Sequence record: MK295203
Source: Escherichia phage vB_EcoM_005
DNA: 64,000 nucleotides
Strand: one strand, 5' to 3'
The translations under genes and the position numbers were made by a program. A model generated the notes under the pieces. The model ran no database searches. It was not told where the DNA came from and worked only from the letters and a program-made list of their open reading frames with translations. This document shows positions 4,157 to 32,535 of the stretch, piece after piece (positions within the stretch are counted from its first letter, which is position 1; each line of letters begins with the position of its first letter).

Positions 4157-5131
4157 ATGCAAGATTTCGGACATTGGGCGGTATTTGAAGAAACCGATAT
4201 TAAAAACCATATTGGATTTGTATACGTAATCACTTTTGAAGATGGCAAAAAATATGTAGGTGCTAAAAAGATTTGGAAACGAATTAAAGCTGCACCTTGC
4301 ACATTTAAACGCGGCCCTAAAAAAGGATTTGAAGAATCTGATTGGAAAACCTATACCTCATCATCTAATGAACTAAACGCAATGATAGAAAAGGGTATAA
4401 GTCCTAAAGAGTACCTTATTGTAGGATGGTATCCTACTTGGGGTAAAACTCTTATGGCAGAAATGGAAATGCAATTAGCCAATGATGTTTTACGAGACCC
4501 TATGTGGCTTAACAAGCAAATTGGCGGACATTTCAACCCTAACTGCTTTGACGATTTAACCGCTGACGAAGTTGGCAAGTATATTAAATCTGGGTGGCAA
4601 TTTGGTCGTTCTAAAACAGAAAAACATTCTGTTACCTATAATTGCTCTAAATTTACTATATGGGACTATCAAGAAAATAAAGCAGTGGAAGTTCTAAATC
4701 AAAATGAGTTTGCTCGTAATAATGATTTAAGTAGCAACCATCTAACTAGACTACTTCAAGGAACTCTCGACCTTATTAAAGATCGCTGGGGACTTCCACC
4801 AGATATTGCTCGTCAGCGTTATAAATTTCAGGACGTTTCTTCAGGAACAAAATTTTTATCTAATTCTGAGTTAGAAGAATTTTACGGTATGACTCGCGGT
4901 CAGGCTAACAAAGCCGTTAAAGATGGAAGAGCCGTTAAATTGGTAGTCGAAAGCAAAGAAGACCACATTAAAAAACTTGGCTCTATCGAATTGGTAAAAA
5001 CCGAAAAGACAAAAGTTACGTCTCAAGTAATGCTTAACAGTTTTAAAGATATAGTTAATCCTATGACCACTGCCGAAAAATCAGAAATGATTGAATGGTT
5101 GGAAAGTTATATAACTTATTTGAAATCTTAA
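4157..5131 (+). CDS. GIY-YIG homing endonuclease (seg-like)
   Basis: N-terminal GFVYVITFEDGKKYVGAKK (GIY...YVG) motif; 324 aa typical of free-standing T-even seg genes. Confidence 0.6.
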   Translation: MQDFGHWAVFEETDIKNHIGFVYVITFEDGKKYVGAKKIWKRIKAAPCTFKRGPKKGFEESDWKTYTSSSNELNAMIEKGISPKEYLIVGWYPTWGKTLMAEMEMQLANDVLRDPMWLNKQIGGHFNPNCFDDLTADEVGKYIKSGWQFGRSKTEKHSVTYNCSKFTIWDYQENKAVEVLNQNEFARNNDLSSNHLTRLLQGTLDLIKDRWGLPPDIARQRYKFQDVSSGTKFLSNSELEEFYGMTRGQANKAVKDGRAVKLVVESKEDHIKKLGSIELVKTEKTKVTSQVMLNSFKDIVNPMTTAEKSEMIEWLESYITYLKS

Positions 5132-7767: not shown

Positions 7768-8027
7768 AACCCATATCCACCACCCTCGCCTACGAAGGTC
7801 TCGGATTTTTCTTAATAGATAACTGTATGGATGTTGAGTTTGTTTGTGGTGAGACTTCTTTAGTATGGAAGTCTCATATTTCCAAATACAACCATCGTGA
7901 ATATCCAGGTCTTTTTAAAGAATTTTGTGGATATATGTCTGAACACGGGTGTACTGATACAATTTCTTATTCCGAGTTCATACAAATCCTTGAAACAGTA
8001 TTTCAGGCTTATTGCTTACTCCGTTGA
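7764..8027 (+). CDS. hypothetical protein
   Basis: 87-aa ORF, ATGA overlap. Confidence 0.45.
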   Translation: MKPISTTLAYEGLGFFLIDNCMDVEFVCGETSLVWKSHISKYNHREYPGLFKEFCGYMSEHGCTDTISYSEFIQILETVFQAYCLLR

Positions 8028-8054
8028 TGCTTTAAAAGGGTCTTCAAATACTAT
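8028..8054 (+). promoter_or_regulatory. possible middle promoter (MotA-box-like TGCTTTA plus -10)
   Basis: TGCTTTA at 8028-8034, TACTAT at 8049-8054, upstream of gene 55. Confidence 0.3.
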
Positions 8055-8093
8055 GATATAATAGACCTATGATTTGAGTTATCTGAGGTAACA

Positions 8094-8651
8094 ATGACCA
8101 AAATTAAACTGACTAAAAATAATTATGTAAATAACAAGGAGCTTCTTAAAGCTATTACAAGTTGGAAGCAGGAATTATATGCTAATACCGACCCTAATAA
8201 AATCATTAGACAAAATGATACTATAGGATTGGCTATTATGCTTATAGCAGAAGGCCTCAGCAAGCGTTTCAACTTCTCAGGATATACCCAATCTTGGCGG
8301 CAGGAAATGATAGCTGATGGAATCGAAGCTTCGATTAAAGGTCTTCACAACTTCGACGAAACAAAATATGACAACCCACATGCATATATCACTATGGCTT
8401 GTTTTAATGCCTTCGTTCAGCGTATCAAAAAAGAACGTAAAGAAATGGCAAAGAAATATAGCTACTTCGTCCATAATGTCTATGACAGCAATGATGACGA
8501 CATGGTAGGTATTGCAGATGAAACCTTTATCCAAGATATCTACGACAAAATGACTCAGTATGAAACCTCTTTAACTAAAGCACCAGGGTCTGATAAGAGT
8601 GCCGAACCTAAAGTTGGTGAACTGGATTTTTTATATGGAACATCAGATTAA
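8094..8651 (+). CDS. 55: late-transcription sigma factor gp55
   Basis: 185 aa; long blocks ([51 protein letters not shown]) match my recollection of T4 gp55. Confidence 0.9.
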
Positions 8652-8865
8652 TATCACTCCACTTTTAGATGGAATGGAAGACTTCGAAGCACTCCCTTAT
8701 TTTATTAAATTGATATTACGGGATGTTAAAGGCCTTCCTATTGATATTGACCCACTTAACGTCAGGAATATTGAATTCACTTCTCCTGACAATAACGTAG
8801 ATTATCGTTATCATGTTGAGAACGCTAATTTCTACTTCACTATTGAATTGACTCCAAAGGATTAA
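8635..8865 (+). CDS. hypothetical protein
   Basis: 76-aa ORF overlapping the end of gene 55. Confidence 0.35.
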
Positions 8866-8866
8866 T

Positions 8867-9178
8867 ATGCAAAGCCATGACATTTCTCAATTGACTGATG
8901 AGCAAATTGAAGAAGCCCAGCAACGTTTAGAAGAGCACAATATTAAAGAAGCTAATTCTCAAGCGGCTAAGATTCTTAAGAAGAATGCTCGTGAAATCCG
9001 TCGTTTAAATCTCCATGCCCAAGGCGCTGTACTTGAAAACAACTTTGAAGCATATAAGTACGCTTTAATTAAATTACGTGGTATTTACCGTCAACCTGTT
9101 ACTGATGAACTTGTTCAATTGATGTGGGAATCTACCCGCAAACAAATTTGGGAAATCGTCAATGGCTCTAGTAAATAA
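8867..9178 (+). CDS. hypothetical protein
   Basis: 103-aa ORF. Confidence 0.45.
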   Translation: MQSHDISQLTDEQIEEAQQRLEEHNIKEANSQAAKILKKNAREIRRLNLHAQGAVLENNFEAYKYALIKLRGIYRQPVTDELVQLMWESTRKQIWEIVNGSSK

Positions 9179-9362
9179 ACCCTTTAAACGGCTTCTTATT
9201 GGAGCCGCCTTTAGACTTCGCTCATACGGTAATATCTGTATTAAGCAGTCCGAAACCGAATACAAAATGATGGGCCAATATTCTGATGGTATTTTTAAGA
9301 TTGAGCCTGTAGCCAAGGTTTGGGTAGATTCGCACCAACTTAAGAAATGGTGGCAACGATGA
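9162..9362 (+). CDS. hypothetical protein
   Basis: 66-aa ORF. Confidence 0.35.
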   Translation: MALVNKPFKRLLIGAAFRLRSYGNICIKQSETEYKMMGQYSDGIFKIEPVAKVWVDSHQLKKWWQR

Positions 9363-9420
9363 TAACATGGACAGGTGGCTAATGAAAGACGAATACGAAA
9401 AAGTTTAAGAGGTTGTATGA

Positions 9421-9594
9421 ATGACGAATTCGATGGATTTTGATAAGATTAAATCTGACAAAAACGAGATGATTCTTCAATTTGAAGCCGCTCGTATTAA
9501 AGCAGAAAACGAAGGTACTATTACATATAAGCCTATCAAGTTCAGGTCTTCTCATGAACCTCTGTATGGTGTATTAGTTGGTAAAGGAGCTTAG
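9421..9594 (+). CDS. hypothetical protein
   Basis: 57-aa ORF followed directly by a terminator hairpin. Confidence 0.3.
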   Translation: MTNSMDFDKIKSDKNEMILQFEAARIKAENEGTITYKPIKFRSSHEPLYGVLVGKGA

Positions 9595-9605
9595 GCTCCT
9601 TTTTT
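9586..9605 (+). terminator. rho-independent terminator
   Basis: GGAGC-TTAG-GCTCC hairpin followed by TTTTTT. Confidence 0.5.
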
Positions 9606-9634
9606 GCTTTCTGAATGGATGATAAAATAAATCT

Positions 9635-10390
9635 ATGAAATACATCACATACCTGACAATATATTCCGGGACTAAGCTTCCACCGTTTTATATAGGGTCT
9701 ACCACTTTGGAGAAGCATTTAAAAGGATACCACGGGAGTGTCCTTTCTAAAGCATATAAAGAAATCTATAAAAATGAGCTTTTAGAGCACCCAGAATTAT
9801 TTGACTCATGTATTGTAAGTGAACACCCTACAAGAGAAGAGGCTTTAGAAGCTGAAAGAATGTACCAGTTAAGAACCGATGCGGCCCAAAATCCTCTATT
9901 CTTTAATAGGGCTGTCGCAGCTCCTAAAGGATTCTTTGGGCTTTCGCTACCTAAAGAGCAACACCCTCTTTACGGCTCTCATAATGCTAAAGGGTATATT
10001 CATTCCTATAATCCTGTTACATTGGAACAAACCTTTGCACCTACAGTCCCCGAAGGATATGTAGAAGGTCGTTCACCTAATTATAAAGCATCTAGTCATA
10101 ATAAGGGCAGGAAGTGGTATAACAATGGTGTTGACAAAGGATTATTTGTAGAAGGAAAACAACCCGAATCTTGGGTTCTTGGTGGTTTTCTAACCGATGA
10201 GCATAAGAAAAACTTGAAAAGAACTGATGGGATATATGACGGCAATTATCACAATTTAGTTTATAAAATTTTTAAGCCTACCGTTACAATTGTTAGACCT
10301 AAGAAAATCTGGGTTAATGACGGCATAAAAAGCTTTATGATTTCTGAGATAGAATTTAATAGTGAAATACATTATAAAGGTAGATTATGA
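9635..10390 (+). CDS. GIY-YIG homing endonuclease
   Basis: N-terminal YITYLTIYSGTKLPPFYIGST motif; NUMOD-like H/S-rich linker repeats; sits where T4 has alpha-gt. Confidence 0.6.
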   Translation: MKYITYLTIYSGTKLPPFYIGSTTLEKHLKGYHGSVLSKAYKEIYKNELLEHPELFDSCIVSEHPTREEALEAERMYQLRTDAAQNPLFFNRAVAAPKGFFGLSLPKEQHPLYGSHNAKGYIHSYNPVTLEQTFAPTVPEGYVEGRSPNYKASSHNKGRKWYNNGVDKGLFVEGKQPESWVLGGFLTDEHKKNLKRTDGIYDGNYHNLVYKIFKPTVTIVRPKKIWVNDGIKSFMISEIEFNSEIHYKGRL

Positions 10391-11409
10391 AAATTTTGAA
10401 TATAGGCGATTTGCATATCGGAGTAAAAGCCGACGACCCCTGGATTCAAGAAATCCAGCTTAACGGTATTAAACAGGCGGTAGAATATTCTAAAGCAAAC
10501 AATATTGATACGTGGATTCAATATGGTGATTGGTTCGATGTACGCAAGGCTATCACCCATAAATGTATGGAATTTAATCGTGGTCTAGTGGAAATTATCA
10601 GTGATGCAGGTATTAAAGTCCACGTTATAATTGGCAACCACGATGCAACGTTTAAAAATAGCATAACTCCTAATGCGGTTTCTGAACTTCTTACTCAGTA
10701 TGAAAATTTTACTATTTACGAGAAACCTACTACGGTTAACTTTGATGGCACTGAAATTGATTTGATTCCATGGATGTGTGAAGAAAACACGACTGATATC
10801 ATGGACCATATCAAAAATACTACTGCAGATTTCTGTATAGGTCACTGGGAATTAAATGGTTTCTATTTCTATAAAGGAATGAAATCTCACGGTTTAGAAC
10901 CTGATTTCCTTAAGAAGTATAAGCAAGTATGGTCTGGCCACTTCCACACCATTTCCGATGCAGCAAACGTTAAGTATATTGGTACGCCATGGACCCTGAC
11001 TGCAGGTGATGAAAATGACCCTCGCGGCTTCTGGATTTTCGATACAGAAACTCATAAGATGGATTTTGTCATCAATGAAACCTGTTGGCACCGTAAGATT
11101 CATTATCCTAACGCGACTATCGATTACAAAGATTTTACAAATATCGCAGTTCGTGTTATAGTCGATAAAATCGATGACGGGCTTACTAAGTTCGAATCTG
11201 AACTTGAAAAGGTTGTCCACTCTTTACGTATTGTGTCTAAGGTAGATAACAGTGTTGATATCGATGATTCTGAAGAGGAAGATGAAGTCAAGTCCCTCTT
11301 GGACATGATGTATGATTATATCGATGCCCTTCCTGACGGCCACACTGAAGACGATGTTAAAGCCCTTAAGACTATGGCTGCACAACTTTATAATGAGGTT
11401 ACACGATGA
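10387..11409 (+). CDS. 47: recombination nuclease subunit gp47 (Mre11-like)
   Basis: 340 aa; phosphoesterase motifs DLHIG, GNHD, GHWE, GHFH; synteny with 46. Confidence 0.9.
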   Translation: MKILNIGDLHIGVKADDPWIQEIQLNGIKQAVEYSKANNIDTWIQYGDWFDVRKAITHKCMEFNRGLVEIISDAGIKVHVIIGNHDATFKNSITPNAVSELLTQYENFTIYEKPTTVNFDGTEIDLIPWMCEENTTDIMDHIKNTTADFCIGHWELNGFYFYKGMKSHGLEPDFLKKYKQVWSGHFHTISDAANVKYIGTPWTLTAGDENDPRGFWIFDTETHKMDFVINETCWHRKIHYPNATIDYKDFTNIAVRVIVDKIDDGLTKFESELEKVVHSLRIVSKVDNSVDIDDSEEEDEVKSLLDMMYDYIDALPDGHTEDDVKALKTMAAQLYNEVTR

Positions 11410-11669
11410 CTTTAGACGAATTCAAAAAATCAGGCCTCGAACTAGAACACGACTGTATCGTTATTGATGACGATGGACAGCCTAGTACAATCAAGTTCTG
11501 GTTCGAGGCCGTGAGCACCCGTGATACCAACGAGCTTATTAAAGTCTATGTTGCCACCGATTGGGCTGTGGAATTTAGCTTTAATGTAATGGTAGATGAT
11601 ACTCCAGAAACATTAATCCATATGGCTGAATCATGCATCAAGGATGCTTATAACGATGAAGACTTTTAA
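11406..11669 (+). CDS. hypothetical acidic protein
   Basis: 87-aa ORF between 47 and 46. Confidence 0.4.
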   Translation: MTLDEFKKSGLELEHDCIVIDDDGQPSTIKFWFEAVSTRDTNELIKVYVATDWAVEFSFNVMVDDTPETLIHMAESCIKDAYNDEDF

Positions 11670-13140
11670 GTTAAAGAAAGTAACGTATAAAAATATTATG
11701 TCGGTAGGCCAGCAACCTATTACAATCCAACTTGATAAGGTCCAAAAGACCTTAGTCACCGGTAAAAATGGCGCTGGGAAATCTACGTTCCTTGAAGCCG
11801 TTACATTTGCTCTGTTCGGTAAGCCTTTTCGTGATGTTAAGAAAGGGCAATTAATTAACTCAAGTAATAAGAAAGACCTTTTGGTCGAACTGTGGATGGA
11901 ATATGATGGCAAAGAATACTACATCAAACGTGGGCAAAAACCCAACGTTTTTGAAATCTCTTGTGACGGTGAACGTCTTGATGAATCTGCCAGCAGTAAA
12001 GACTTCCAAGCGGAATTTGAACAGCTTATCGGAATGTCCTACACAAGCTTCAAACAGATTGTCGTACTTGGTACAGCAGGGTATACCCCTTTCATGGGTT
12101 TGTCGACCCCTGCGCGAAGAAAGCTCGTCGAAGACCTCTTAGAGGTTTCTGTATTAGCGGATATGGATAAGCTGAACAAATCTTTGATTCGTGAGACTAA
12201 TAGCCAAATCCAAGTAATCGACGTTAAACAGGATTCTATTACCCAGCAAATTAAAATTTATAATGACAACGAAGAACGTCAGCGTAAATTATCCGGGGTC
12301 ATCGTCGATGATGACCCTAGCGACTCTATGAGTGACCTGAGTAATAAAGGATTTGCAATCAAGAATGATATGGCAACCTTTACTAAGGTCGTGAAATTAT
12401 ACGAAACCGGCGGTAGTTGTCCTACATGTATGCAAGGATTGGAAGAGCACGGAAATATCCTTACTAAAATTAAGGATAAGAATTTTGAGCTTCAAAAATC
12501 TTTGGATAAGATTAATGAGCAGTACCAAGAACTCAAGCTCATTAAGGACCAAGTAACCGAACAACGTAATAAAGCGTTGGCTATTAAATCTCAGATAGCT
12601 ACTCATAAGCAACAAGCCATTACTGCCGTAGAGAAAGCTAAAAAAGTTAAAGTATTAATCGACCAAGCAGCTGCTGAGTTCGTAAGTAATGCCGAAGAGA
12701 TTGCCGCGCTTCAAGCAGAGCTTGATAAAATCGTCTCTACCAAATCGTCCTTAGTAATGGAAAAATATCATCGTATTATGGAAGCCGACTACGTCTTTAC
12801 ACTGGACGAAGAGTTCAATGAGACGATTAAATCACGTGGACGTGAAGACTTTAGTTATGCTTCATTTTCACAGGGTGAGAAAGCACGTATTGATATCGCA
12901 CTACTTTTTACATGGCGTGATATTGCTTCTAAGGTATCAGGTGTTAATATCAGCACGTTAATTCTTGATGAGGTATTTGACAGTGCTACTGACGCTGAAG
13001 GCGTTAAGACCATTGCAACCATCTTGAATAGCCTTGAGGATACGAACGTGTTCATTATTTCTCACCGAGACCATGACCCACAAGCTTATGGCCAGCATCT
13101 TCAAATGAAGAAAGTTGGACGATTCACGGTGATGGAATGA
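11656..13140 (+). CDS. 46: recombination ATPase gp46 (Rad50-like)
   Basis: Walker A GKNGAGKST, signature SFSQGEKARI, Walker B TLILDEVFD, H-loop FIISHRDH; coiled-coil middle. Confidence 0.9.
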   Translation: MKTFKLKKVTYKNIMSVGQQPITIQLDKVQKTLVTGKNGAGKSTFLEAVTFALFGKPFRDVKKGQLINSSNKKDLLVELWMEYDGKEYYIKRGQKPNVFEISCDGERLDESASSKDFQAEFEQLIGMSYTSFKQIVVLGTAGYTPFMGLSTPARRKLVEDLLEVSVLADMDKLNKSLIRETNSQIQVIDVKQDSITQQIKIYNDNEERQRKLSGVIVDDDPSDSMSDLSNKGFAIKNDMATFTKVVKLYETGGSCPTCMQGLEEHGNILTKIKDKNFELQKSLDKINEQYQELKLIKDQVTEQRNKALAIKSQIATHKQQAITAVEKAKKVKVLIDQAAAEFVSNAEEIAALQAELDKIVSTKSSLVMEKYHRIMEADYVFTLDEEFNETIKSRGREDFSYASFSQGEKARIDIALLFTWRDIASKVSGVNISTLILDEVFDSATDAEGVKTIATILNSLEDTNVFIISHRDHDPQAYGQHLQMKKVGRFTVME

Positions 13141-13832: not shown

Positions 13833-14531
13833 ATGAAATTCTCTAAAGAAACTCTGAACATTCTGAAAAACTTCTCCGGTATTAACCCAGGTATCATGCT
13901 TAAACCTGGTAACACTATTCTAACTCGTTCAGTAACGGGTGCAAGTTATGGTGAAGCTACTGTAAATGACACCTTTGATATCGAAGCCGCAATTTATGAT
14001 TTGAACGGCTTCTTAAGTATTCTGTCATTGGTATCTGATAGTGCTGAAGTTTCGGTAAGTGAAGACCAAACCACTTTAATTATTAAAGACCAACGTTCAA
14101 CTATTAAGTGGCCTATTGCCGACCCAAGCACAATTGCATTCCCAAGCAAAGCTATTCCGTTCCCAGTGGCTGAAGTTATTTTTGACCTTAAAGCTGAAGA
14201 TTATCAACAGTTGATGCGGGTGTCCTCTGGACTGAGTATTGATACATTTGCTATTACTGTAGACAATGGTAAAATTGTAATCAATGGTTACAAACAAGTT
14301 GATGATAAGGACCTGGCACGCCCATTGTATTCCTTAGTGGTTGCAGACCATGATGGCCCTGAATTCAAATTCATTATTAACAAAACTAATATGAAAATGA
14401 TGCCGGCCGATTACCATGTTCTGTTATGGGCACGCGGTGAAGGTCAGGACGCTCGTTTCGCTGCTAAGTTTGAAGGTTCACAAGCTTCTTACGTATTAGC
14501 TATGGAAGCAGGCTCAAGCCACTCGTTCTAA
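13833..14531 (+). CDS. 45: sliding clamp gp45
   Basis: 232 aa; near-colinear with my recollection of T4 gp45 (SGINPGIML, AAIYDLNGFL, NKTNMKMMPADY, LLWARGEG). Confidence 0.92.
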   Translation: MKFSKETLNILKNFSGINPGIMLKPGNTILTRSVTGASYGEATVNDTFDIEAAIYDLNGFLSILSLVSDSAEVSVSEDQTTLIIKDQRSTIKWPIADPSTIAFPSKAIPFPVAEVIFDLKAEDYQQLMRVSSGLSIDTFAITVDNGKIVINGYKQVDDKDLARPLYSLVVADHDGPEFKFIINKTNMKMMPADYHVLLWARGEGQDARFAAKFEGSQASYVLAMEAGSSHSF

Positions 14532-14995
14532 TGTATATATGTTATCATAATACGATAACCAACACTAAAACCAAGTGTGTCTATCATTATTTTGGTAGAC
14601 ACCGTGTTACTGCTGAAGAATACTACGGTACAGGTAAGTTTGTTAAGAAATGCAAACGAGAAAATGCTATTACTCCAGGTCTTTGGGAGTTTTGTGTTGA
14701 AGTTATCCATACAGTGGATACGTTTAAAGAAGCCAAGATTATTGAAGAAGAGCTTGTTAAAGAAGGCATATCAAAATATGGTATCCTTTGTGTTAATAAG
14801 AATCCTGGTGGTGATGGCGGTGTGGATTACCACACCGAAGAATCTAAACGTAAAATGTCAGAAACTAGAACAGGAAAATCAAGAATATTTTCCGAAAGTC
14901 ATAAAGAAAATTTAAGTAAACGAGCCAGAAAATACTCTGATGTTTGGTCCGAACCTGTATATTCAAATCTTAAAACCATTTGGCTGGAAACAGGT
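14531..14995 (+). CDS. degenerate GIY-YIG/NUMOD endonuclease-like module, in frame with gene 44
   Basis: 155 codons with no stop before the gp44 Met; VYHYFG...YYGTGK (GIY-YIG-like) and HTEESKRKMSE / SESHKENLSK (NUMOD3-like); start overlaps gene 45 stop (TAATG). Confidence 0.45.
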
Positions 14996-15967
14996 ATGTT
15001 ATTAAATGGTTTAACTATTAATGAAAACGACTTCATGTGGGAACAGAAATATCGTCCAGGTACTTTATCTGAGTGTATTCTGCCTGCGCATGATAAAGAA
15101 ACCCTCCAAGCCATTGTTAATAAGGGCCTAATCCCTAACATTATCCTAGTCTCTGCTTCACCAGGCACAGGTAAAACTACCGTAGCTAAAGCATTGTGTG
15201 CTGATACAAATTCAGATATGCTGTTTGTTAACGGTTCTGACTGCCGTATTGATTTCGTTCGTAACGAACTTACTCGTTTTGCATCTTCTAAATCTATCGA
15301 AGGTAAGCGTAAGGTAATTGTTATCGACGAATTCGACCGCGCTGGTGTTGCTGAAGCTCAACGTCACCTTCGTTCGTTCTTAGAAGCCTATTCCTCAAAC
15401 TGTTCTGTAATTATTACAGCAAACAATATTGATGGTATTATCGGTCCACTTCAATCCCGTTGTCGTGTTATTAAATTTGGTGAAGCCACTCCAGCCGACC
15501 AAACATCCATGATGAAAGAAATGATTCATCGTGCTGTAGCAATCTGTAAAAACGAAAATATCGAAGTCGAAGACCTTAAAGTTATTGCCGCTTTAGTTAA
15601 ACAAAACTTTCCTGACTTCCGTAAAACAGTTAACCAACTGGACCGTTACTCATCCAGTGGTAAAATCGATACAGGCATTTTGAGTATTGTAATGAATACC
15701 AATTCGCCTATCGATGAAGTAGTGGCTGCACTTAAAGATAAAAACTTTAAAGAACTCCGTGCATTAGCTCCACGCCATGTCAATGACTATTCCAACTTTA
15801 TTATGTCACTGGCTAACGAACTCTATGGTAAATTGCCTGGACCAAGCATTGTTAGAATGTATGAAATTGTCGGTGAAAATAACCAATACCACGGTATTGC
15901 GGCTAACCCAGAAATTCACATGACTTATCTGTTCATCCAACTTGCTCTGGAGCTCCAATGGCTATAA
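14996..15967 (+). CDS. 44: clamp-loader large subunit gp44
   Basis: AAA+ Walker A SPGTGKTT, Walker B VIVIDEFD, sensor IITANN; high identity to my recollection of T4 gp44 from MLLNG..EQKYRPG onward. Confidence 0.9.
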   Translation: MLLNGLTINENDFMWEQKYRPGTLSECILPAHDKETLQAIVNKGLIPNIILVSASPGTGKTTVAKALCADTNSDMLFVNGSDCRIDFVRNELTRFASSKSIEGKRKVIVIDEFDRAGVAEAQRHLRSFLEAYSSNCSVIITANNIDGIIGPLQSRCRVIKFGEATPADQTSMMKEMIHRAVAICKNENIEVEDLKVIAALVKQNFPDFRKTVNQLDRYSSSGKIDTGILSIVMNTNSPIDEVVAALKDKNFKELRALAPRHVNDYSNFIMSLANELYGKLPGPSIVRMYEIVGENNQYHGIAANPEIHMTYLFIQLALELQWL

Positions 15968-16536: not shown

Positions 16537-16899
16537 ATGATTGAAATTACTCTGAAACAACCTGAAGACTTCTTGAAAGTGAAAGAGACCCTAACTCGTA
16601 TGGGTATCGCTAATAATAAAGAAAAGAAACTATATCAATCCTGCCACATTCTGCAAAAGCAAGGGCTATATTATATCGTCCACTTTAAAGAGATGTTGCG
16701 TATGGACGGCCGTCAAGTTGATATCGATGGTGAAGACTACCAACGTCGTGATTCAATTGCCCAGCTTCTTAAGGAGTGGGGACTGATTGATATTGTAGAT
16801 GAATCTGAACTGTTCGAAATCACCAATAACTTCCGTGTCATTTCCTTTAAGCAGAAAAATGACTGGGAACTACTGTCTAAGTACACCATTGGTAATTAA
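16537..16899 (+). CDS. regA: translational repressor RegA
   Basis: 120 aa; MIEITLK.PEDFLKVKETLTRMGIANNK...FRVISFKQK matches my recollection of T4 RegA. Confidence 0.92.
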   Translation: MIEITLKQPEDFLKVKETLTRMGIANNKEKKLYQSCHILQKQGLYYIVHFKEMLRMDGRQVDIDGEDYQRRDSIAQLLKEWGLIDIVDESELFEITNNFRVISFKQKNDWELLSKYTIGN

Positions 16900-17098: not shown

Positions 17099-19711
17099 AT
17101 GCAAGAATTCTATTTGACAGTCGAACAAATCGGTGATAATATTCTCGAACGTTACATCGATAAAAATGGTAACGAACGTAGTCGTGAAGTTCCTTACAAG
17201 CCTACAATGTTTATGCATGCTAATCCAGAGCAAGCCGTAAAATACATTGATATCTATGGTAAGGGTTGTGTTAAGAAAGAATTCGACTCTATGCGTGATG
17301 CATCCCAATGGATGAAACGTATGGACGATATGGGTCTCGAAGCCCTGGGTATGGACGACTATAAATTAGCCTATTTGTCTGATACCTATCGTAAAGAAAT
17401 CAAATACGATTCTTCTAAGATTCGTATTGCTAACTTCGACATCGAGGTAACATCTCCTGATGGATTCCCTGAACCAGCTCAGGCTAAACATCCTATCGAT
17501 GCCATTACCCACTACGACTCGATTGACGATAAATTCTATGTATTCGACCTTTTAGTTTCACCTTATGGTACCGTTGAAGAGTGGTCTATTAAAATCGCTG
17601 AGAAACTCCAAGAAGAAGGTGGTGACGAAGTTCCACAAGAAATCATTGACAAAATCGTTTATCTTCCGTTTAATTCCGAAGAAGAAATGATGCTTGAGTA
17701 TCTGAATTTCTGGCAGCAGAAAACTCCTGTTATTTTGACTGGTTGGAACGTTGAGTCGTTTGACGTACCATACGTTTATAACCGTCTGAAAAATCTGTTT
17801 GGTGAGAACACTGCTAAGCGATTAAGCCCACACCGTAAGACTCGTGTTAAAGTTATCGAGAACATGTATGGTGCTCGTGAAATTATTACACTGTTCGGTA
17901 TCTCTGTTCTGGATTATATCGACCTTTATAAAAAATTCAGCTTTACCAACCAGCCTTCTTATTCTTTGGATTATGTTTCTGAATATGAATTGAAAGTAGG
18001 TAAGTTGAAATATGATGGTCCAATCTCCAAGTTACGTGAGACGAACCACCAACGATATATTTCCTATAACATTATCGACGTATATCGTGTAGTGCAGATT
18101 GATATGAAACGCCAGTTCATTCTTCTGAGTTTGGACATGGGTTATTATGCTAAGATGCAGATTCAGTCGGTGTTCAGTCCAATTAAGACTTGGGACGCTA
18201 TTATCTTTAATAGCCTTAAAGAACAAGGCAAGGTCATTCCACAAGCTCGTTCACACGTGGTCCAACCTTATCCTGGTGCTTTCGTTAAGGAACCTATTCC
18301 TAACGCATACAAATATGTAATGAGTTTTGACCTTACATCTCTGTACCCGAGTATTATTCGACAAGTGAATATAAGCCCAGAGACCATCGCAGGCACATTC
18401 GCTAATGCACCGATACATGAATATATTGCCGGAACAGCTCCGCGTCCTAGCGACGTCTACAGTTGCTCTCCTAACGGCATGATGTACTATAAAGACCGTG
18501 ATGGTGTGATTCCTACAGAAATCACTAAGGTGTTCTTACAACGTAAAGAACATAAAGGTTATATGCTTGCAGCTCAACGTAATGGCGAGTTAATTAAAGA
18601 AGCATTAGAAAATCCTAATCTGTCAGTTGATAGTCCACTGGATATCGATTATCGTTTTGACTTCTCTGACGAAATCAAAGCCAAGATTAAAACGCTGTCA
18701 GCACCTTCTTTAAAAGAAATGTTGTTCAGAGCCGAACGTACTGAAGTCGCAGGTATGACTGCTCAGATTAACCGTAAGTTGCTTATCAACTCCCTTTATG
18801 GTGCACTTGGTAACGTATGGTTCCGTTACTATGACCTCAGGAACGCAACTGCAATCACACTGTTTGGTCAAATGGCCCTCCAATGGATTGAACGTAAGGT
18901 TAACGAATATCTGAACAGCGTGTGTAAGACTGAAAATCAGAAGTTCGTGCTCTATGGTGATACTGACTCCATTTATGTTAAGGCAGATGCAATCATCAAT
19001 AAAGTAGGCGAAGATAAATTCCGTGACACTAACCACTGGGTCGACTTCTTAGATAAATTTGCACGTGAACGTATGGAACCGGCTATTGATGCAGGCTTCC
19101 GTGAGATGTGCGAGTACATGAACAACAAACAACACTTGATGTTCATGGACCGAGAAGCTATCGCAGGTCCTCCACTTGGTTCTAAAGGTCTTGGTGGATT
19201 CTGGACAGGCAAGAAACGTTATGCACTTAACGTTTGGGACATGGAAGGCACTCGTTATGCCGAACCACACTTGAAAATCATGGGTCTCGAAACTCAGAAA
19301 TCAAGTACACCTAAAGCGGTTCAGAAAGCTCTGAAAGAATGTATCCGTCGTATGCTTCAGGAAGGCGAGGCATCTTTGCAAGAATATTTCAAACAGTTTA
19401 ATAAGGAATTTAACGAACTGGACTATGTAAGCATTGCAGCAGTATCCAGTGCTAACAACATCGAGAAATATAATGAAGGCGGATTGGTATATGTACTGCC
19501 ACTTAAAGAAGGCAACCCATTCGGTGAAGCCTGTATGGCATGGCCGTCAGGTATTGAACTTCCGATTCAGATTCGTGACCAAGTCCTCCGTTGGATGGAC
19601 TACAACGTACTGTTCCAAAAGACCTTTATCAAGCCTCTGACTGGTTTTACCGAGTCTGCTAAAATCGACTACGAGAAAAAAGCAACATTATTTGACATGT
19701 TTGACTTTTAA
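17099..19711 (+). CDS. 43: DNA polymerase gp43 (family B)
   Basis: 870 aa from MQEFYLTVEQIG; exonuclease FDIEV, pol motifs SLYPSII, NSLYG, YGDTDS; closest in my recollection to the RB69 polymerase. Confidence 0.95.
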   Translation: MQEFYLTVEQIGDNILERYIDKNGNERSREVPYKPTMFMHANPEQAVKYIDIYGKGCVKKEFDSMRDASQWMKRMDDMGLEALGMDDYKLAYLSDTYRKEIKYDSSKIRIANFDIEVTSPDGFPEPAQAKHPIDAITHYDSIDDKFYVFDLLVSPYGTVEEWSIKIAEKLQEEGGDEVPQEIIDKIVYLPFNSEEEMMLEYLNFWQQKTPVILTGWNVESFDVPYVYNRLKNLFGENTAKRLSPHRKTRVKVIENMYGAREIITLFGISVLDYIDLYKKFSFTNQPSYSLDYVSEYELKVGKLKYDGPISKLRETNHQRYISYNIIDVYRVVQIDMKRQFILLSLDMGYYAKMQIQSVFSPIKTWDAIIFNSLKEQGKVIPQARSHVVQPYPGAFVKEPIPNAYKYVMSFDLTSLYPSIIRQVNISPETIAGTFANAPIHEYIAGTAPRPSDVYSCSPNGMMYYKDRDGVIPTEITKVFLQRKEHKGYMLAAQRNGELIKEALENPNLSVDSPLDIDYRFDFSDEIKAKIKTLSAPSLKEMLFRAERTEVAGMTAQINRKLLINSLYGALGNVWFRYYDLRNATAITLFGQMALQWIERKVNEYLNSVCKTENQKFVLYGDTDSIYVKADAIINKVGEDKFRDTNHWVDFLDKFARERMEPAIDAGFREMCEYMNNKQHLMFMDREAIAGPPLGSKGLGGFWTGKKRYALNVWDMEGTRYAEPHLKIMGLETQKSSTPKAVQKALKECIRRMLQEGEASLQEYFKQFNKEFNELDYVSIAAVSSANNIEKYNEGGLVYVLPLKEGNPFGEACMAWPSGIELPIQIRDQVLRWMDYNVLFQKTFIKPLTGFTESAKIDYEKKATLFDMFDF

Positions 19712-19713
19712 GT

Positions 19714-19743
19714 GTTTACATACCACATGGAACGTGGTAGTAT
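19714..19743 (+). promoter_or_regulatory. T4-type early promoter
   Basis: GTTTAC 19714-19719, TAGTAT 19738-19743, CCTATCAAC leader. Confidence 0.5.
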
Positions 19744-19774
19744 CCTTCCTATCAACTACTTAGAGGAAATTACA

Positions 19775-20011
19775 ATGGAAGCTTTAATCGTTAGTGCTGG
19801 TGTTTTAGGATTCGGTTCTCTGGCTATTATGTTCATTGGTTACTTTTTACCATGGATTTTAGCTCTTCTGCGAGGCACTCGTAGTAATGTAGGAATTTTC
19901 TTCCTTAATCTCCTGTTAGGTTGGACGATGATTGGTTGGGTAGTGGCTTTAATCTGGGCTATCGCTGCTGAACGTAAATCAAATGCACAAATCATTATTG
20001 TTAAACAGTAA
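19775..20011 (+). CDS. small two-TM membrane protein at the T4 imm position (Imm-like by synteny)
   Basis: 78 aa, two hydrophobic helices, directly downstream of gene 43. Confidence 0.5.
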   Translation: MEALIVSAGVLGFGSLAIMFIGYFLPWILALLRGTRSNVGIFFLNLLLGWTMIGWVVALIWAIAAERKSNAQIIIVKQ

Positions 20012-20521: not shown

Positions 20522-20581
20522 GCAGTATCAATTTATTAAAAATAGTGTATAATGTACCTACATTCACTTGAGGAACAGATA

Positions 20582-22255
20582 ATGAAAAAGGTTGTTATTT
20601 TAGGCGCAGGTCTTGGCTCACGGTTGTATCCAATTACTAACGAAATCCCGAAGGTATTGGTTAACTACAAACAACATACAGTACTAAAACATTTATATGA
20701 TTTGTATAGTAACCAATCAGATGAAATTATTCTGGTTATTCACAGCAAATTTAACGACCTCGTTAAAGGCTATATTAAATCCATTAACATGATTAATAGT
20801 GATAAGCCTAAATTCACTATTCGTAACGTAGATGTGGCCAATGGTTCAGCTCATGCTATCGATTGCATTGCTGAAGATATCATTGGCCATAACGTCCTGT
20901 TTAACTGGTGTGACATCATTCCTGAGGGTCATAAAGTTGAGTGGGATAACGACTACTGTTATACCTACGGGACTGACTGTCGTTTTACATTTGAAGAACC
21001 GTACTTGCGTGAAATTGGTACTGGCGGTGGCGTGGTTGGTTTGTATCAGGTGGCTAATTGGACAGGTTTCGACCGTTCTAATTATGGTGAAGACCTTGCC
21101 GATAACCTAGATTCAATGGTCTATTTGACTGAACGTAAGCTAGACTTTGTAGTTGATGTCGGTGACAAATTGAAACTGGCTAAGGCCCATGAAGAATCCG
21201 AAATTAACCGTGAATTTAATAAATTAGAGTTCACTGAGAATCTGGCTATTAAAGTACCAACTAACGAATTAGGTAAAGAAATCCAATCTAAAGAAATCAA
21301 TTGGTATAATTCTATTGATTCTGAATTTGTTCCGAGCATTGTAGACTTTGCTCCAGGCGAATTCATTAAAATGGAACGTATCTTTGGTCGCACCATGGCA
21401 GATGCCTACCGGTTTATGTCTAAAGAAACTAAAGTCCTCATGGTTTATAAGGTCATTAGTGCATTACGTTCATTCGGTGGAACTATCGATAACCCATCTG
21501 ATGAGCAATGGTATTCCGATGTTAAGAAAGAAGTATTGGACAAGGTCCTGATTCGTAATGCTTCTATTGCCGGATTGATTGAAGGCTTTGCTCCACAGGG
21601 TATTACCCATGTCAATGACTTTAAGGTAGGCGACCCTGAAAAACTTCTTCGTCATGCACTAGAAATTCTGTCTGAACATAAAGAACCGTACCAACTTATT
21701 CATGGCGACCCGCACTACAGTAATATTATGTTGTCTGACGAAGGTGATATTAAAATCATCGACCCACGTGGTTATTTTGGTAATAGTTCTAAAGGCCCTG
21801 CGATTTATGATGAAGCTAAGGTGCTTTATTCTATCGATGGTTATGACAAATTTAACTCTGACCCTCTATGGGGTGGCTTAACCCGTAACGGAACTCGTGT
21901 ATTCGTTGATATTGAAAAGGTCATGCCTTTAGACGATATTCCGATGTGTACATTTAAGCACAAGCTCTGGATTGCTGTTATCTGGATGGCATTGGCAGGT
22001 TACTTTAAAAATAACCCTCTGAAAGCTCTGGGTGCTTATTACAATGGGCTATATCAACTGAGCGTGCTGCTGAAGCGGCATCCTCGTAAGCGTAAGCTTA
22101 TCACAGGTGAATTTGTCGATGAAGTTCGTGACCCTATTACGGCTCAAATTATCACTCGTTGTCCTGATAAGTGGGTTTTGCTTGACCAAGAAACTGGTGT
22201 AAAATATAAACCTACAGGTTCTACTGAACTCCACAAACAATGGAAGAAAATTTAA
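20582..22255 (+). CDS. bifunctional sugar-1-phosphate nucleotidyltransferase / APH-family kinase
   Basis: N-terminal ILGAGLGSRLYPIT...PK (sugar nucleotidyltransferase signature); C-terminal HGDPHYSNIML...IIDPRGYFG (aminoglycoside/choline-kinase-like catalytic loop). Confidence 0.6.
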   Translation: MKKVVILGAGLGSRLYPITNEIPKVLVNYKQHTVLKHLYDLYSNQSDEIILVIHSKFNDLVKGYIKSINMINSDKPKFTIRNVDVANGSAHAIDCIAEDIIGHNVLFNWCDIIPEGHKVEWDNDYCYTYGTDCRFTFEEPYLREIGTGGGVVGLYQVANWTGFDRSNYGEDLADNLDSMVYLTERKLDFVVDVGDKLKLAKAHEESEINREFNKLEFTENLAIKVPTNELGKEIQSKEINWYNSIDSEFVPSIVDFAPGEFIKMERIFGRTMADAYRFMSKETKVLMVYKVISALRSFGGTIDNPSDEQWYSDVKKEVLDKVLIRNASIAGLIEGFAPQGITHVNDFKVGDPEKLLRHALEILSEHKEPYQLIHGDPHYSNIMLSDEGDIKIIDPRGYFGNSSKGPAIYDEAKVLYSIDGYDKFNSDPLWGGLTRNGTRVFVDIEKVMPLDDIPMCTFKHKLWIAVIWMALAGYFKNNPLKALGAYYNGLYQLSVLLKRHPRKRKLITGEFVDEVRDPITAQIITRCPDKWVLLDQETGVKYKPTGSTELHKQWKKI

Positions 22256-22638
22256 TGTCGCATCGAGTAGAAAATAAGCCCCATTTATGTTTTGACATCG
22301 ATAATACAATCACGGTTTGGAACCATGACCGTGATTACGAAAACTTTAAACCGGACACCGAAATGGTGTCCATGATTAATAAGCTTTATGATGAAGGGTA
22401 CGAGATTACATTGTTCACTGCTCGTGGTATGACTTCATGTGGCCCTGGTCGAATCTTGGTTGAAGTAGTTCCTGCATTGGTTAAGAACCTTGAAAAGATT
22501 GGATTGAAATATCATAATCTGCTTACACATAAGCCGAGTTATACTTTTATCATCGATGACCGAGCAATCCGTCCTGACCACTTTAAAGAAATGGTTCGTG
22601 AAGGAACTCTTGAAACCTATAAGGCATATCATCCATGA
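22255..22638 (+). CDS. small HAD-superfamily phosphatase
   Basis: motif I FDIDNTIT (DxDxT), motif II TLFTARG, C-terminal IIDDR; 127 aa. Confidence 0.5.
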   Translation: MSHRVENKPHLCFDIDNTITVWNHDRDYENFKPDTEMVSMINKLYDEGYEITLFTARGMTSCGPGRILVEVVPALVKNLEKIGLKYHNLLTHKPSYTFIIDDRAIRPDHFKEMVREGTLETYKAYHP

Positions 22639-23171
22639 AACCAAAAATCATTGTTATCGACGGCCCGGATAATTCCGGGAAGTCCACTTTAATTGAATCA
22701 CTTTTATCTGATAAGAAATATCGTCTTATTGATTTTCCTAAAAAGATTAACGGTAAATGCATTTCATTAGGGACCGATAATGACAAGGCTTTAGTCGAGA
22801 CGTTGTATAAGTTTTTAGACCCTAATTTTGTCTACATCTTAGACCGTGGGTATCCTAGTAATATTGTTTACTCGGGATTCCTTCGTGGTGAAATGGACCC
22901 TTATGTAGAACTGGAAGATTGGAAAGGGTTTAAATCTGAATTCAATATTATTGAGGTTATTTTAACCCGTAACCCATTAGATGAAGACTTCGAAGATGAC
23001 CTTATTAAATTAACCAAAGATGAGTTCAACCTAACTATCCGGCAGTATGAAACATGTTTTGAAAACGTGTTTAAAATCTTAAATCACGACGGCCATAATA
23101 ATTTGCTTAATGTTGATATGGTAGAATTAAAACGTCTGAATGAATATATTGAAAATAAGGTGAATAAATGA
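22635..23171 (+). CDS. P-loop kinase (dNMP/thymidylate-kinase-like)
   Basis: N-terminal Walker A IVIDGPDNSGKST; 178 aa. Confidence 0.5.
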   Translation: MKPKIIVIDGPDNSGKSTLIESLLSDKKYRLIDFPKKINGKCISLGTDNDKALVETLYKFLDPNFVYILDRGYPSNIVYSGFLRGEMDPYVELEDWKGFKSEFNIIEVILTRNPLDEDFEDDLIKLTKDEFNLTIRQYETCFENVFKILNHDGHNNLLNVDMVELKRLNEYIENKVNK

Positions 23172-23866
23172 AACACATTACCGCTGTTAGTTTTGAAAAC
23201 GCGTTTAAGCAAATGAACGAAGAAATCCTGGAAGCTCCACAGTTTGCAGTTGATTCTCGTATCGGCCGTTGTTATGAAATTGGTTCTGCTTCGGTAGAAG
23301 TACTGGATGCAAGCACCTATAAATTCACCGACCCTCGTATTAATCGTATCAACTATGATTATGCCGAATCTTTCTGGAAATTTATGATTTCTGGTGGTAC
23401 TGATGCCGCCGAAGCATTTAAGGAATACCCTAATGTTGCTAAGTTCATTGATAAGCCGAAAAGTGACGTATTGCCTGCAAACTTCAACACTTTCTATGGA
23501 CCTCGAATTGTGGCCCAACTCCCAGCCCTACTTAAAGAGCTTAAAGAAAAGCCTAACTCGAGACGAGTTGTGTTCCAAATTCTCCAAGAACAAGACCAAG
23601 CTCTCCTTGATTCTGACGAATCCTTAGAATATCCGTGTACCGATTCGGTAACATATTATATTCGTGATGGACGTCTGTATGCACACACTCATATGCGTTC
23701 ACAGAACTGTGCTATCGTTATGCAGCTGGATTTCTATCTGCAGGGTAAACTGATGGCCTTTATTGCTGAACAGTGTGGTGTTGGTCTGGGTACGTATTCC
23801 CATACTATGGTTAGTGCACACGTGTTTGAACGTGATTTTGACTACGTTCGAGGATTCCTGAAATGA
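23168..23866 (+). CDS. thymidylate-synthase-fold pyrimidine hydroxymethylase (gp42-like)
   Basis: catalytic Cys context EYPCTDSVTYYIRD and MRSQN..D align with my recollection of T4 gp42 (FMCTNTVQYLIRD / MRSND); much more divergent from T4 than neighbouring core genes. Confidence 0.6.
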   Translation: MKHITAVSFENAFKQMNEEILEAPQFAVDSRIGRCYEIGSASVEVLDASTYKFTDPRINRINYDYAESFWKFMISGGTDAAEAFKEYPNVAKFIDKPKSDVLPANFNTFYGPRIVAQLPALLKELKEKPNSRRVVFQILQEQDQALLDSDESLEYPCTDSVTYYIRDGRLYAHTHMRSQNCAIVMQLDFYLQGKLMAFIAEQCGVGLGTYSHTMVSAHVFERDFDYVRGFLK

Positions 23867-24657
23867 GTCTGTTTATCGTTCCTATTTTCAGTATGCGTAG
23901 TTACGAAACAGGTGAATATGCCGTCCTTAAGGACGGTAATTTTCAACTCCATTTAAACCGTGCTCGCCCAGGTGATTATCTGGCTTATCCTAGAAATTCG
24001 AGCGATATCAAAGAATGTATTGAATTGTTTCCTGAACTGAATTTTGTGCCACTTTGGTATAAAGAAAATGCTTATGAAACTCGTAAACATTTTTGGTCTG
24101 AAAATGAGTTCGTCGTTGATTCATTAATTGAATACTATGACTGTTCAGGCTTAGTAACCGATATCACAGGTTATGATGGCACTCAGACTGTACAATTCAA
24201 CTTTAACATTACAATGGACCCTGAAGTTCCTCGTTATTATATCGATGAGTTTATTGATATCGACGTGTCTTCAGTTGAACGTTCGATTTATACTACAGTC
24301 CTGAATCAATGCCAGAAAGACGTCCTGGTGTCACGAGGTGCGTCCTCTGATAAGATTTTTGTAGACCAAAAGGTAATTAATCCCGCAGTAATTGAGCGTT
24401 ACTCTGAAGGTCTAGCGCCTATTAAAATTGATGGTATTTTCCATCCATTCCGTATCTCAGATAAATGCTACCAATTCGAAAGAGTTGTAGACCAAGCTGC
24501 GGCCGTATATTATCAGATTCTGAAATCAAGACCTCATATCATTTATCATGAGAATCCTGGTTTAGTATTCCATCCTGGTCTGGCTGAATTCATTTATTTC
24601 GGTGCCCACATCCATTCTGAGCACGAAATGCCAAGTTATGAGGACGTAGTATGCTAG
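23863..24657 (+). CDS. hypothetical protein at the T4 beta-gt position (candidate DNA glycosyltransferase)
   Basis: 264-aa ORF between gp42-like gene and uvsX; contains a DxD-like FIDIDVSS motif; no confident fold assignment. Confidence 0.45.
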   Translation: MSLFIVPIFSMRSYETGEYAVLKDGNFQLHLNRARPGDYLAYPRNSSDIKECIELFPELNFVPLWYKENAYETRKHFWSENEFVVDSLIEYYDCSGLVTDITGYDGTQTVQFNFNITMDPEVPRYYIDEFIDIDVSSVERSIYTTVLNQCQKDVLVSRGASSDKIFVDQKVINPAVIERYSEGLAPIKIDGIFHPFRISDKCYQFERVVDQAAAVYYQILKSRPHIIYHENPGLVFHPGLAEFIYFGAHIHSEHEMPSYEDVVC

Positions 24658-31690: not shown

Positions 31691-31719
31691 CACAATTAAG
31701 CGTATGCAACGATTAGTTG

Positions 31720-32512: not shown

Positions 32513-32535
32513 TGAATTGAAAAAGGAAAAATATA

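Follow-up and report, generated by a model that had tools for sequence, protein, structure and literature searches.

In T4, the interval between gene 55 and gene 47 holds a-gt.5 to a-gt.2, the HNH-family endonuclease gene mobB, the alpha-glucosyltransferase gene a-gt and 47.1. In RB69 (Mosigvirus), the order is 55, a-gt.5, a-gt.4, a-gt.3, a-gt.2 and 47, with no a-gt. RB69 carries a gene cluster for arabinosyl-5-hydroxycytosine (Lee et al., NAR 2026, PMC13326640; Thomas et al. 2018, PMC6024577), and its gp48 has been shown experimentally to make 5-hydroxy-dCMP (PMC13326640). Alpha-gt has been assigned to "T-even type phages only", and JS98 was found to be without glucosyltransferase genes (PMC2993671). 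For several lineages, the Dhakaviruses included, synteny points to 5-hydroxy-dC biosynthesis (PMC13326640).

We analyzed 64,000 nucleotides of Escherichia phage vB_EcoM_005 (MK295203), referred to below as the window; every feature described lies on its plus strand. Judged by its sequence, the window is from a Dhakavirus, a T4-type coliphage resembling JS98, IME08, Bp7 and KIT01, and its nucleotide identity to KIT01, SHP1 and IME08 is 95–97%. Alignment against relatives revealed exact 99-bp gaps in at least 13 places, including gp43, gp46 (twice), rIIA (twice), gp39 and others; positions 10240, 12296, 12774, 19485 and 24503 are among the junctions. Because so many gaps share one length and some of them take out conserved parts of the essential gp43 and gp46, they are probably a sequence artefact, which calls for caution with every other finding on this window.

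The left border of the interval is gene 55 (8094–8651), encoding the late-transcription sigma factor (79% amino acid identity to T4 gp55 in tblastn, E 6e-95) and annotated as such in KIT01, IME08 and Bp7. The right border is gene 47 (10387–11409), encoding an Mre11/SbcD-like recombination nuclease (69% identity to T4 gp47). A preliminary description had reported that alpha-gt is missing between these genes, and this is indeed the case: the interval consists of four small ORFs, a hairpin terminator and a 251-aa GIY-YIG ORF. The small ORFs, which the same description had left unassigned, are identified by Pfam and tblastn as homologues of T4 a-gt.5, a-gt.4, a-gt.3 and a-gt.2. The start of the a-gt.5 homologue (76 aa, 8635–8865; DUF5491, E 1.8e-14; 41% identity, E 1.7e-14) overlaps the end of gene 55. 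It is followed by the homologues of a-gt.4 (103 aa, 8867–9178; DUF2654, E 4e-23; 41% identity, E 1e-20), a-gt.3 (66 aa, 9162–9362; tblastn 45% identity, E 3.5e-14; no family in a Pfam search) and a-gt.2 (57 aa, 9421–9594; DUF5486, E 2.5e-20; 58% identity, E 4e-18). No functions for a-gt.2 to a-gt.5 turned up in a literature search.

Comparison across related phages, which had been proposed as a check, returned the same a-gt-less block in RB69, and LC53 (Winklervirus), MX01 and Bp7 are also without a-gt between 55 and 47. The interval is an a-gt-less arrangement that also occurs in RB69, from which the window differs in having an endonuclease gene upstream of gene 47. With T4 the window shares gene 55, a-gt.5 to a-gt.2, gene 47, and a hairpin and MotA-box-like motif after a-gt.2, whereas of the two only T4 has a-gt and 47.1. 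Both intervals hold a free-standing endonuclease gene, but that of T4 is the HNH-family mobB and that of the window is of the GIY-YIG class and adjoins gene 47.

A consensus scan placed an intrinsic-terminator-like hairpin with a T run at 9583–9612 (hairpin 9583–9602). The hairpin, AAAGGAGC-UUAG-GCUCCUUU, has an 8-bp stem closing the loop UUAG, within which lies the stop codon of a-gt.2, and the fold of 9570–9634 has −16 kcal/mol (z −2.1). An equivalent hairpin follows a-gt.2 in T4, Bas42, MX01, Bp7 and IME08, and in LC53 one shortly precedes the endonuclease gene; with compensatory stem changes, it is conserved in every Dhakavirus allele examined as well as in T4 and LC53. The terminator noted earlier in this interval is a consensus match, and terminator and sigma-70 promoter scans of 7900–11700 gave counts no higher than shuffles.

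Directly downstream, a pattern scan detected a candidate MotA-type middle promoter at 9603–9629 (TTTGCTTTC, 11 nt, TAAAAT). T4, Bas42 and MX01 have the same MotA-box-like motif after their a-gt.2 hairpins. Matches to the pattern numbered 8 on the coding strand versus 4 on the other, which is no excess over shuffles and by itself not statistically informative; the promoter call is for this reason based on conservation with T4 and MX01. Since the predicted start falls about at the ATG of the endonuclease ORF, the promoter would mainly serve gene 47. The arrangement would be a conserved hairpin terminator and then a probable MotA-type middle promoter serving genes 47 and 46.

The ORF at 9635–10390 had been described as a GIY-YIG homing endonuclease gene, and its motifs, predicted fold and match to phrog_314 agree with that assignment. 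We classify it as a free-standing, Seg-like GIY-YIG homing endonuclease gene (phrog_10820, 6.7e-83; phrog_314 "homing endonuclease", 4e-18). The product has 251 aa in the window and 284 aa in all close relatives, with an N-terminal nuclease domain (residues ~1–100) and a predicted C-terminal helical DNA-binding region. The GIY and YIG motifs occupy the first ~25 residues (YLTIYSG...PPFYIGS), where Tyr6, Tyr10, Tyr19 and Gly21 are invariant across 35 homologues. Glu74 and Asn91, equated by numbering and fold match with Glu75 and Asn90 of I-TevI, are likewise invariant in the alignment. At the place of I-TevI Arg27 there is no invariant arginine; what is conserved there is a GY(H)GS motif, as in Seg proteins. 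The predicted fold matches the GIY-YIG domains of I-TevI, PD-T4-3 and UvrC. Pfam PF01541 scored 16.6 bits (E 0.01), below its gathering cut-off of 22.6. Searches of PDB sequences, by phmmer with the single sequence and with a 35-sequence profile, gave nothing useful, and NCBIfam gave nothing; because these searches were empty, the GIY-YIG assignment rests on the motifs and the predicted fold. In databases, the family is often labelled "HNH endonuclease" (phrog_10820, RefSeq QL01), a label that finds no support in the fold.

The enzyme resembles SegA–G and I-TevI in its N-terminal GIY-YIG domain, its Seg-type GY(H/M)GS motif and its C-terminal helical DNA-binding region. Many of its 243 homologues have NUMOD3, and, as with Seg genes, the insertion is intergenic and beside a conserved essential gene. 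Presence/absence polymorphism is combined with a divergent tract in the neighboring gene, as for SegF and gene 56; the same combination has reportedly been described for SegG and gene 32. The window endonuclease differs in having no BLAST-level similarity to T4 SegA and no match to Pfam SegE_GIY-YIG. T4 SegA, mobB and 47.1 matched nothing in the 55–47 interval; their matches were to other endonuclease genes in the window.

In three genera, gene 47 is immediately preceded by a homologue of the endonuclease; one such phage is a Tequatrovirus that has a-gt as well. The homologues of Bas42 (AndreasVesalius, Tequatrovirus) and LC53 share 60–64% identity with it across the nuclease domain and likewise lie right before gene 47, but they are shorter (207–210 aa), with a C-terminus that is different or truncated. 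In LC53, a remnant of the long C-terminal domain persists out of frame. The Dhakavirus slot has four alleles: long in KIT01 and SHP1, short in IME08 and QL01, absent in MX01, and a remnant in Bp7 and ABTNLS3. The gene is present or absent at one locus among close relatives, a pattern expected of a mobile gene. Two copies of a 10-bp direct repeat, TGAAATACAT, bound the ORF (9636–9645 and 10363–10372), and in Bp7 and ABTNLS3, whose alleles lack the endonuclease, the junction falls precisely inside this repeat.

The polymorphism extends into gene 47. The opening ~360 nt of that gene (10387 to about 10746) form a divergent haplotype, A, that is linked to the long endonuclease. Sliding identity to IME08, QL01 and MX01 is 45–72% over nt 1–360 and 90–100% thereafter, revealing two 5' haplotypes that end abruptly near nt 360. 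Only 8 phage records match haplotype A at 95% identity or more, and coverage values suggest that these are the records with the long endonuclease or its remnant.

On our reading, the endonuclease gene is a selfish element in its own right, inserted after the gene 47 promoter and ahead of the ribosome-binding site. Its product would cleave relatives without the endonuclease within or close to the 5' part of gene 47, and double-strand-break repair would copy the element in together with about 360 nt of that gene. A more specific version, whose chances we rate at somewhat below even, makes the long endonuclease and the ~360-nt start of gene 47 one co-transferred module, with the common, T4-like haplotype B as the cleavage target and haplotype A as a cleavage-immune copy. 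Phages such as Bp7 would since have lost the endonuclease by recombination between the two 10-bp repeats; the 9-codon mini-ORF that they retain (MKYIIKGRL) would probably have been kept for the gene 47 ribosome-binding site and translational coupling that it provides. If true, the enzyme would be a new, uncharacterized homing endonuclease against the phage Mre11 gene.

Alternatively, 9635–10390 could have ceased to be an active mobile element and be either an endonuclease gene that is inactive and decaying or a domesticated remnant. The window ORF is without 33 residues, corresponding to two helices of the predicted DNA-binding domain, its ribosome-binding site is weak and the predicted promoter start falls at its ATG. 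Relatives show every stage of decay, from the truncated LC53 gene with its out-of-frame remnant through a short 205-aa form to near-complete deletion. The missing 33 codons, however, are one of the 99-bp gaps of identical length described above (junction at 10240–10241, from alignments against KIT01, SHP1 and three metagenome contigs), which looks like an artefact. The segment is present in every relative compared, no relative or metagenome contig examined shares the gap, and KIT01, SHP1 and six metagenome contigs all have an intact gene for the 284-aa form. We therefore rejected biological decay as the main reading of this gap, and consider an inactive or domesticated gene unlikely.

The preliminary description had also stated that beta-gt is missing and that this phage does without the glucosylation enzymes of T4. 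In tblastn against the window, T4 a-gt (400 aa) had no homologue, its best match being 36 aa at 33% identity (E 0.028) inside the HAD phosphatase ORF described below. The complete 172.6-kb genome of KIT01, searched as a relative, gave no homologue either, and its best match (E 0.055) fell in the same place; the 36-aa match was dismissed as chance similarity. T4 b-gt (351 aa) returned nothing below E 3 in the window and nothing below E 1 in KIT01. The position of b-gt is occupied by an ORF whose product has no BLASTP similarity to b-gt (E 0.63) or a-gt. There is no Dhakavirus among the 40 listed of 657 a-gt-bearing phage records, nor among the matches listed for b-gt (126 records). The window thus has neither a-gt nor b-gt, and the ~95% identical relative and the literature suggest that the absence of a-gt and b-gt extends to the genome outside these 64 kb. 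The disuse of the T4 enzymes is supported by the tblastn nulls, the ORF at the b-gt position and the earlier account of JS98 (PMC2993671), and also by the presence of an RB69-type cluster. We attribute the lack of the T4 DNA-glucosylating enzymes to the RB69-type arabinosyl-5-hydroxycytosine pathway carried in their place, and the absence of alpha-gt to the lineage making no glucosyl-hydroxymethylcytosine.

The cluster sits between imm and uvsX; its RB69 counterpart lies near the DNA polymerase gene and uvsX. The first gene (20552–22255) encodes an AfhE-like bifunctional sugar kinase/nucleotidylyltransferase with Pfam NTP_transferase and APH domains, 41–44% identical to the bifunctional kinase/uridylyltransferase of RB69 (p052, p053), and is predicted to make UDP-arabinose (compare PMC13326640). 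It is followed by an AfhF-like HAD phosphatase (22240–22638; TIGR01689 capsule biosynthesis phosphatase, E 1.6e-14; 63% identity to RB69 p051) and a thymidylate-kinase-like nucleotide kinase (22635–23171; phrog_761; 37% identity to RB69 p045). At the position of gene 42 lies a thymidylate-synthase (ThyA) homologue (23168–23866) with 79% identity to RB69 gp48 (E 6e-129) and 25% to T4 gp42, which we predict to be a 5-hydroxy-dCMP synthase rather than a dCMP hydroxymethylase. The ORF at the T4 b-gt position (23863–24657; phrog_3891; 69% identity to RB69 p047 and 49% to p046) encodes a predicted DNA arabinosyltransferase 1 of the RB69 gp46:47 type. This protein has only 264 aa in the window, compared to 297 aa in KIT01, because of a 99-bp gap.

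Besides the thymidylate-synthase homologue, which would make 5-hydroxy-dCMP, the module thus has the nucleotide kinase, the AfhE- and AfhF-like enzymes for UDP-arabinose and a single arabinosyltransferase of the GT-B class. The virion DNA is accordingly predicted, by homology to RB69, to carry arabinosyl-5-hydroxycytosine. [quoted passage not shown] Since the second transferase is missing, 5-hydroxycytosine is probably mono-arabosylated; since the isomerase and the U32-like protein are absent, the pathway would depend on host KdsD/GutQ, or may differ.

A second alternative is that a gp42-type enzyme makes hydroxymethylcytosine that is then left unglycosylated, raised in 2010 as an open possibility for JS98 (PMC2993671). 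The same paper counted JS98-type phages as having gene 42 alleles; relatives label the ORF dCMP hydroxymethylase, as do many GenBank annotations, and the ORF belongs to the thymidylate synthase family, like gp42. Its identity to T4 gp42 is nonetheless far below that to the 5-hydroxy-dCMP-making RB69 gp48, and its flanks are sugar-activation genes and a transferase homologous to the arabinosylation genes of RB69. Unglycosylated hydroxymethylcytosine consequently appears very improbable compared to the arabinosyl-5-hydroxycytosine predicted above.

Weakest of all, and most improbable, is the idea that a recent ancestor had a-gt and lost it to the homing endonuclease now filling its slot: mobB adjoins a-gt in T4, which makes the 55–47 region a hotspot of mobile endonucleases, and a hairpin-plus-promoter unit is duplicated on either side of T4 a-gt, giving that gene the look of a cassette open to gain or loss, yet a-gt is also missing here from RB69 and LC53, the former of which has no endonuclease either, and from the endonuclease-less Dhakavirus alleles of MX01 and Bp7, tblastn detects no a-gt fragment in the window, and the hydroxymethylcytosine-type chemistry that a-gt needs is missing, the gp42 homologue being RB69 gp48-like. 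In Bas42, moreover, a-gt, 47.1 and the endonuclease occur together, so the endonuclease is no replacement for a-gt. The suggestion that it occupies a vacated a-gt slot was not borne out; the family is anchored at the 5' end of gene 47.

We conclude, with considerable confidence, that this is a Dhakavirus with an a-gt-less, RB69-like interval, a cytosine-modification module of the RB69 type and an independent selfish GIY-YIG element tied to gene 47. That it lacks glucosyltransferases is correct but already known, for JS98-type phages since 2010 (PMC2993671), and the replacement pathway has been known since 2026 (PMC13326640). Modest new points are the four-allele Dhakavirus slot, the repeat-bounded remnant at empty sites and the divergent start of gene 47 linked to the endonuclease. 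The value for discovery is small and the practical value is in annotation: relatives are probably mislabelled where they have "gene 42 / dCMP hydroxymethylase" or "HNH endonuclease". For the biology of the group, the predicted reduced, perhaps mono-arabinosyl, form of 5-hydroxycytosine bears on which restriction and type IV defences are escaped by Dhakaviruses that are candidates for therapy, and the endonuclease locus at gene 47 offers a clean natural series of homing endonuclease invasion, decay and loss.

Searches with the T4 alpha- and beta-glucosyltransferase proteins (a-gt and b-gt) returned no credible match in the 64-kb window (tblastn) or in the whole genome (172,558 bp) of KIT01, one of the Dhakaviruses (with SHP1, IME08, Bp7 and QL01, for example) to which the window region is 95–97% identical. 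This bears out the preliminary description, which had reported a-gt missing between genes 55 and 47, and supports its proposal that the phage does without the T4 glucosylation enzymes. The latter is already published: glucosyltransferase homologues are missing from RB69 and JS98, and alpha-gt occurs in ‘T-even type phages only’ (Petrov et al. 2010, PMC2993671). Whereas the T4 interval after gene 55 runs a-gt.5 to a-gt.2, mobB, a-gt, 47.1 and 47, the Mosigvirus RB69 has the same a-gt-less gene order as the window, and the Winklervirus LC53 likewise has no a-gt there. Across the phage collection, 657 records contain a-gt homologues and 126 contain b-gt homologues. By name and identity band, the a-gt-bearing records appear to be Tequatroviruses and a group of Klebsiella phages; no Dhakavirus is among the matches listed for either enzyme. 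That this lineage lacks a-gt is already known, and so is the reason.

Experiments showed that RB69 gp48 converts dCMP to 5-hydroxy-dCMP, RB69 DNA contains arabinosylated 5-hydroxycytosine, and Dhakaviruses are among the lineages whose synteny suggests 5-hydroxy-dC biosynthesis (PMC13326640). Between imm (19712–20011) and uvsX (24860–26032), the window encodes five proteins relevant to the pathway that would stand in for glucosylation: a 567-aa nucleotidyltransferase-plus-kinase protein (41–44% identity to RB69 p052/p053), a 132-aa HAD phosphatase (63% to p051), a 178-aa nucleotide kinase (37% to p045), a 232-aa thymidylate-synthase homologue (79% to RB69 gp48 but only 25% to T4 gp42) and, at the T4 b-gt position, a 264-aa protein of unknown family (49–69% to p046/p047) that resembles neither T4 b-gt nor T4 a-gt in sequence. 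Neither the window nor KIT01 holds a counterpart of RB69 gp3 (the second arabinosyltransferase), of its arabinose-5-phosphate isomerase or of its U32-like protein. Their absence predicts a reduced pathway that would draw on arabinose-5-phosphate from the host and probably attach just one arabinose. At 23863–24779, the predicted DNA arabinosyltransferase has a 99-bp gap (264 aa versus 297 aa in KIT01); the 127-bp stretch that follows the transferase ORF (~24653–24779) is missing in KIT01.

Gene 55 (8094–8651) and gene 47 (10387–11409) were placed by ORF listing and homology search (amino-acid identity 79% to T4 gp55 and 69% to T4 gp47). The four small ORFs after gene 55 are present as first described, but they are not unassigned: they match T4 a-gt.5 (8635–8865), a-gt.4 (8867–9178), a-gt.3 (9162–9362) and a-gt.2 (9421–9594) at E values between 1e-14 and 1e-20; these names are already used in the KIT01, IME08, Bp7 and RB69 annotations. 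The four ORFs therefore form a conserved block of T4-type genes. Three of them match Pfam families (DUF5491, DUF2654 and DUF5486); searching the literature turned up no function for a-gt.2 to a-gt.5.

The a-gt.2 stop codon lies in the loop of a hairpin, AAAGGAGC-UUAG-GCUCCUUU, that is followed by a T run (9583–9612). With compensatory changes in its stem, the hairpin recurs after a-gt.2 in T4, in the Tequatrovirus Bas42 and in every Dhakavirus allele examined, and LC53 has a similar one just upstream of its endonuclease gene; around the 55–47 interval, matches to the terminator consensus are no commoner than in shuffled sequence. Directly 3' of the hairpin, a MotA-box-like motif with a -10 element (TTTGCTTTC, 11 nt, TAAAAT; 9603–9629), found at the equivalent place in T4 and MX01, is a putative middle promoter that would drive genes 47 and 46. 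T4 (L004) carries such a hairpin–promoter unit after both a-gt.2 and a-gt (16585–16640 and 18660–18740), whereas MX01 (L014) has one (1690–1760), followed by 47.1. Such a layout suggests that mobB and a-gt of T4 make up a cassette gained (or lost) between duplicated regulatory units.

Alignment with KIT01 shows the window to be missing exactly 99 bp in at least 13 places (after 1440, 3351, 5818, 10240, 12296, 12774, 16915, 19485, 24503, 35708, 44940, 46089 and 46749) and probably also after 2782, and the 1–3 bases immediately to the right of a junction are often altered. The gap after 10240 takes 33 residues, and with them two helices of the putative DNA-binding domain, out of the GIY-YIG homing endonuclease ORF (9635–10390, 251 aa); others fall in gp46 and rIIA (two each), gp43, gp39 and the putative arabinosyltransferase, so that many window ORFs are 33 codons shorter. 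The segments of the essential gp43 and gp46 removed here are conserved and present in T4, and the three checkable gaps are shared with no GenBank relative or metagenome contig; the gaps are therefore most likely artefacts of the sequence record, its assembly or editing. The 251-aa endonuclease is not found in a collection of 5.8 billion proteins, where the best match is a 284-aa form, most likely the length of the real gene product. If the gaps are real, the endonuclease is probably inactive.

Three further free-standing endonuclease genes lie at 4157–5131 (Pfam SegE_GIY-YIG, E 8e-34), 30146–30676 (SegA-like, tblastn 2.5e-14) and 31717–32370 (mobB-like, 2.7e-20). No homing endonuclease genes were reported in JS98 and JS10 (PMC2993671), which makes the number in this Dhakavirus unusually high. 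The mobB/SegA-like ORF at 31717–32370 adjoins, on the upstream side, a gene 56 (dCTPase) rearranged into three pieces (32375–33376): an N-terminal fragment of 29 aa (90% identical to KIT01 gp56), a full-length divergent copy (62%) and a C-terminal fragment (aa 40–173, 92%). The arrangement looks like a homing-endonuclease-associated partial duplication of the target gene. Elsewhere, genes 45 and 44 are separated by ~490 nt (14537–15026; 73 nt in KIT01), a stretch 99.5% identical in Bp7 and PSD2002, where an ORF with no assigned function is annotated. In the window this stretch continues in frame into gene 44 (ORF 14531–15967, 478 aa), possibly owing to another 99-bp gap.

The idea that the endonuclease occupies the a-gt slot did not hold. 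Its homologues sit right beside gene 47, on the upstream side, in LC53, in Dhakaviruses and in Bas42, which has a-gt and 47.1 as well; the endonuclease is thus tied to gene 47 rather than to the a-gt position. Between the a-gt.2 hairpin and gene 47, the Dhakavirus slot has four states: a long endonuclease of 284 aa (the window, KIT01, SHP1 and six metagenome contigs), a short one of 205 aa whose C-terminus differs (IME08, QL01), a 47.1 homologue alone (MX01), or a remnant (Bp7, ABTNLS3). The remnant, ATGAAATACAT joined to TATAAAGGTAGATTATGA, fuses the first 11 nt of the long gene to its last 18 nt and retains a 9-codon mini-ORF still overlapping the gene 47 start. Its junction coincides with a 10-bp direct repeat, TGAAATACAT, whose two copies bound the ORF in the window (9636–9645 and 10363–10372), the mark of a deletion between short repeats. 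In LC53, a truncated endonuclease gene is followed by what remains, out of frame, of the long C-terminal domain.

Within this one genus, two deeply divergent haplotypes, with only 45–72% nt identity, exist for the 5'-most ~360 nt of gene 47 (10387–10746); from nt 361, identity is 90–100% across all Dhakaviruses compared, marking a sharp recombination boundary. Haplotype A is carried by the window, KIT01, SHP1, Bp7 and ABTNLS3, and its protein is 75% identical to RB69 versus 63% to haplotype B. Only 8 phage records have it at ≥95% identity; judging from alignment coverage values, these would be the carriers of the long endonuclease or the remnant. Homing at a putative cleavage site could have co-converted the flanking DNA and so produced the divergent tract; alternatively, a target copy immune to cleavage there may have been imported. 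Such events are known for T4 SegF and SegG. The four slot states, the remnant junction and the LC53 remnant show endonuclease invasion, decay and loss at this locus. The enzyme itself is an uncharacterised representative of a known class; the series of alleles and the tract of gene 47 linked to it are details that are new but modest.
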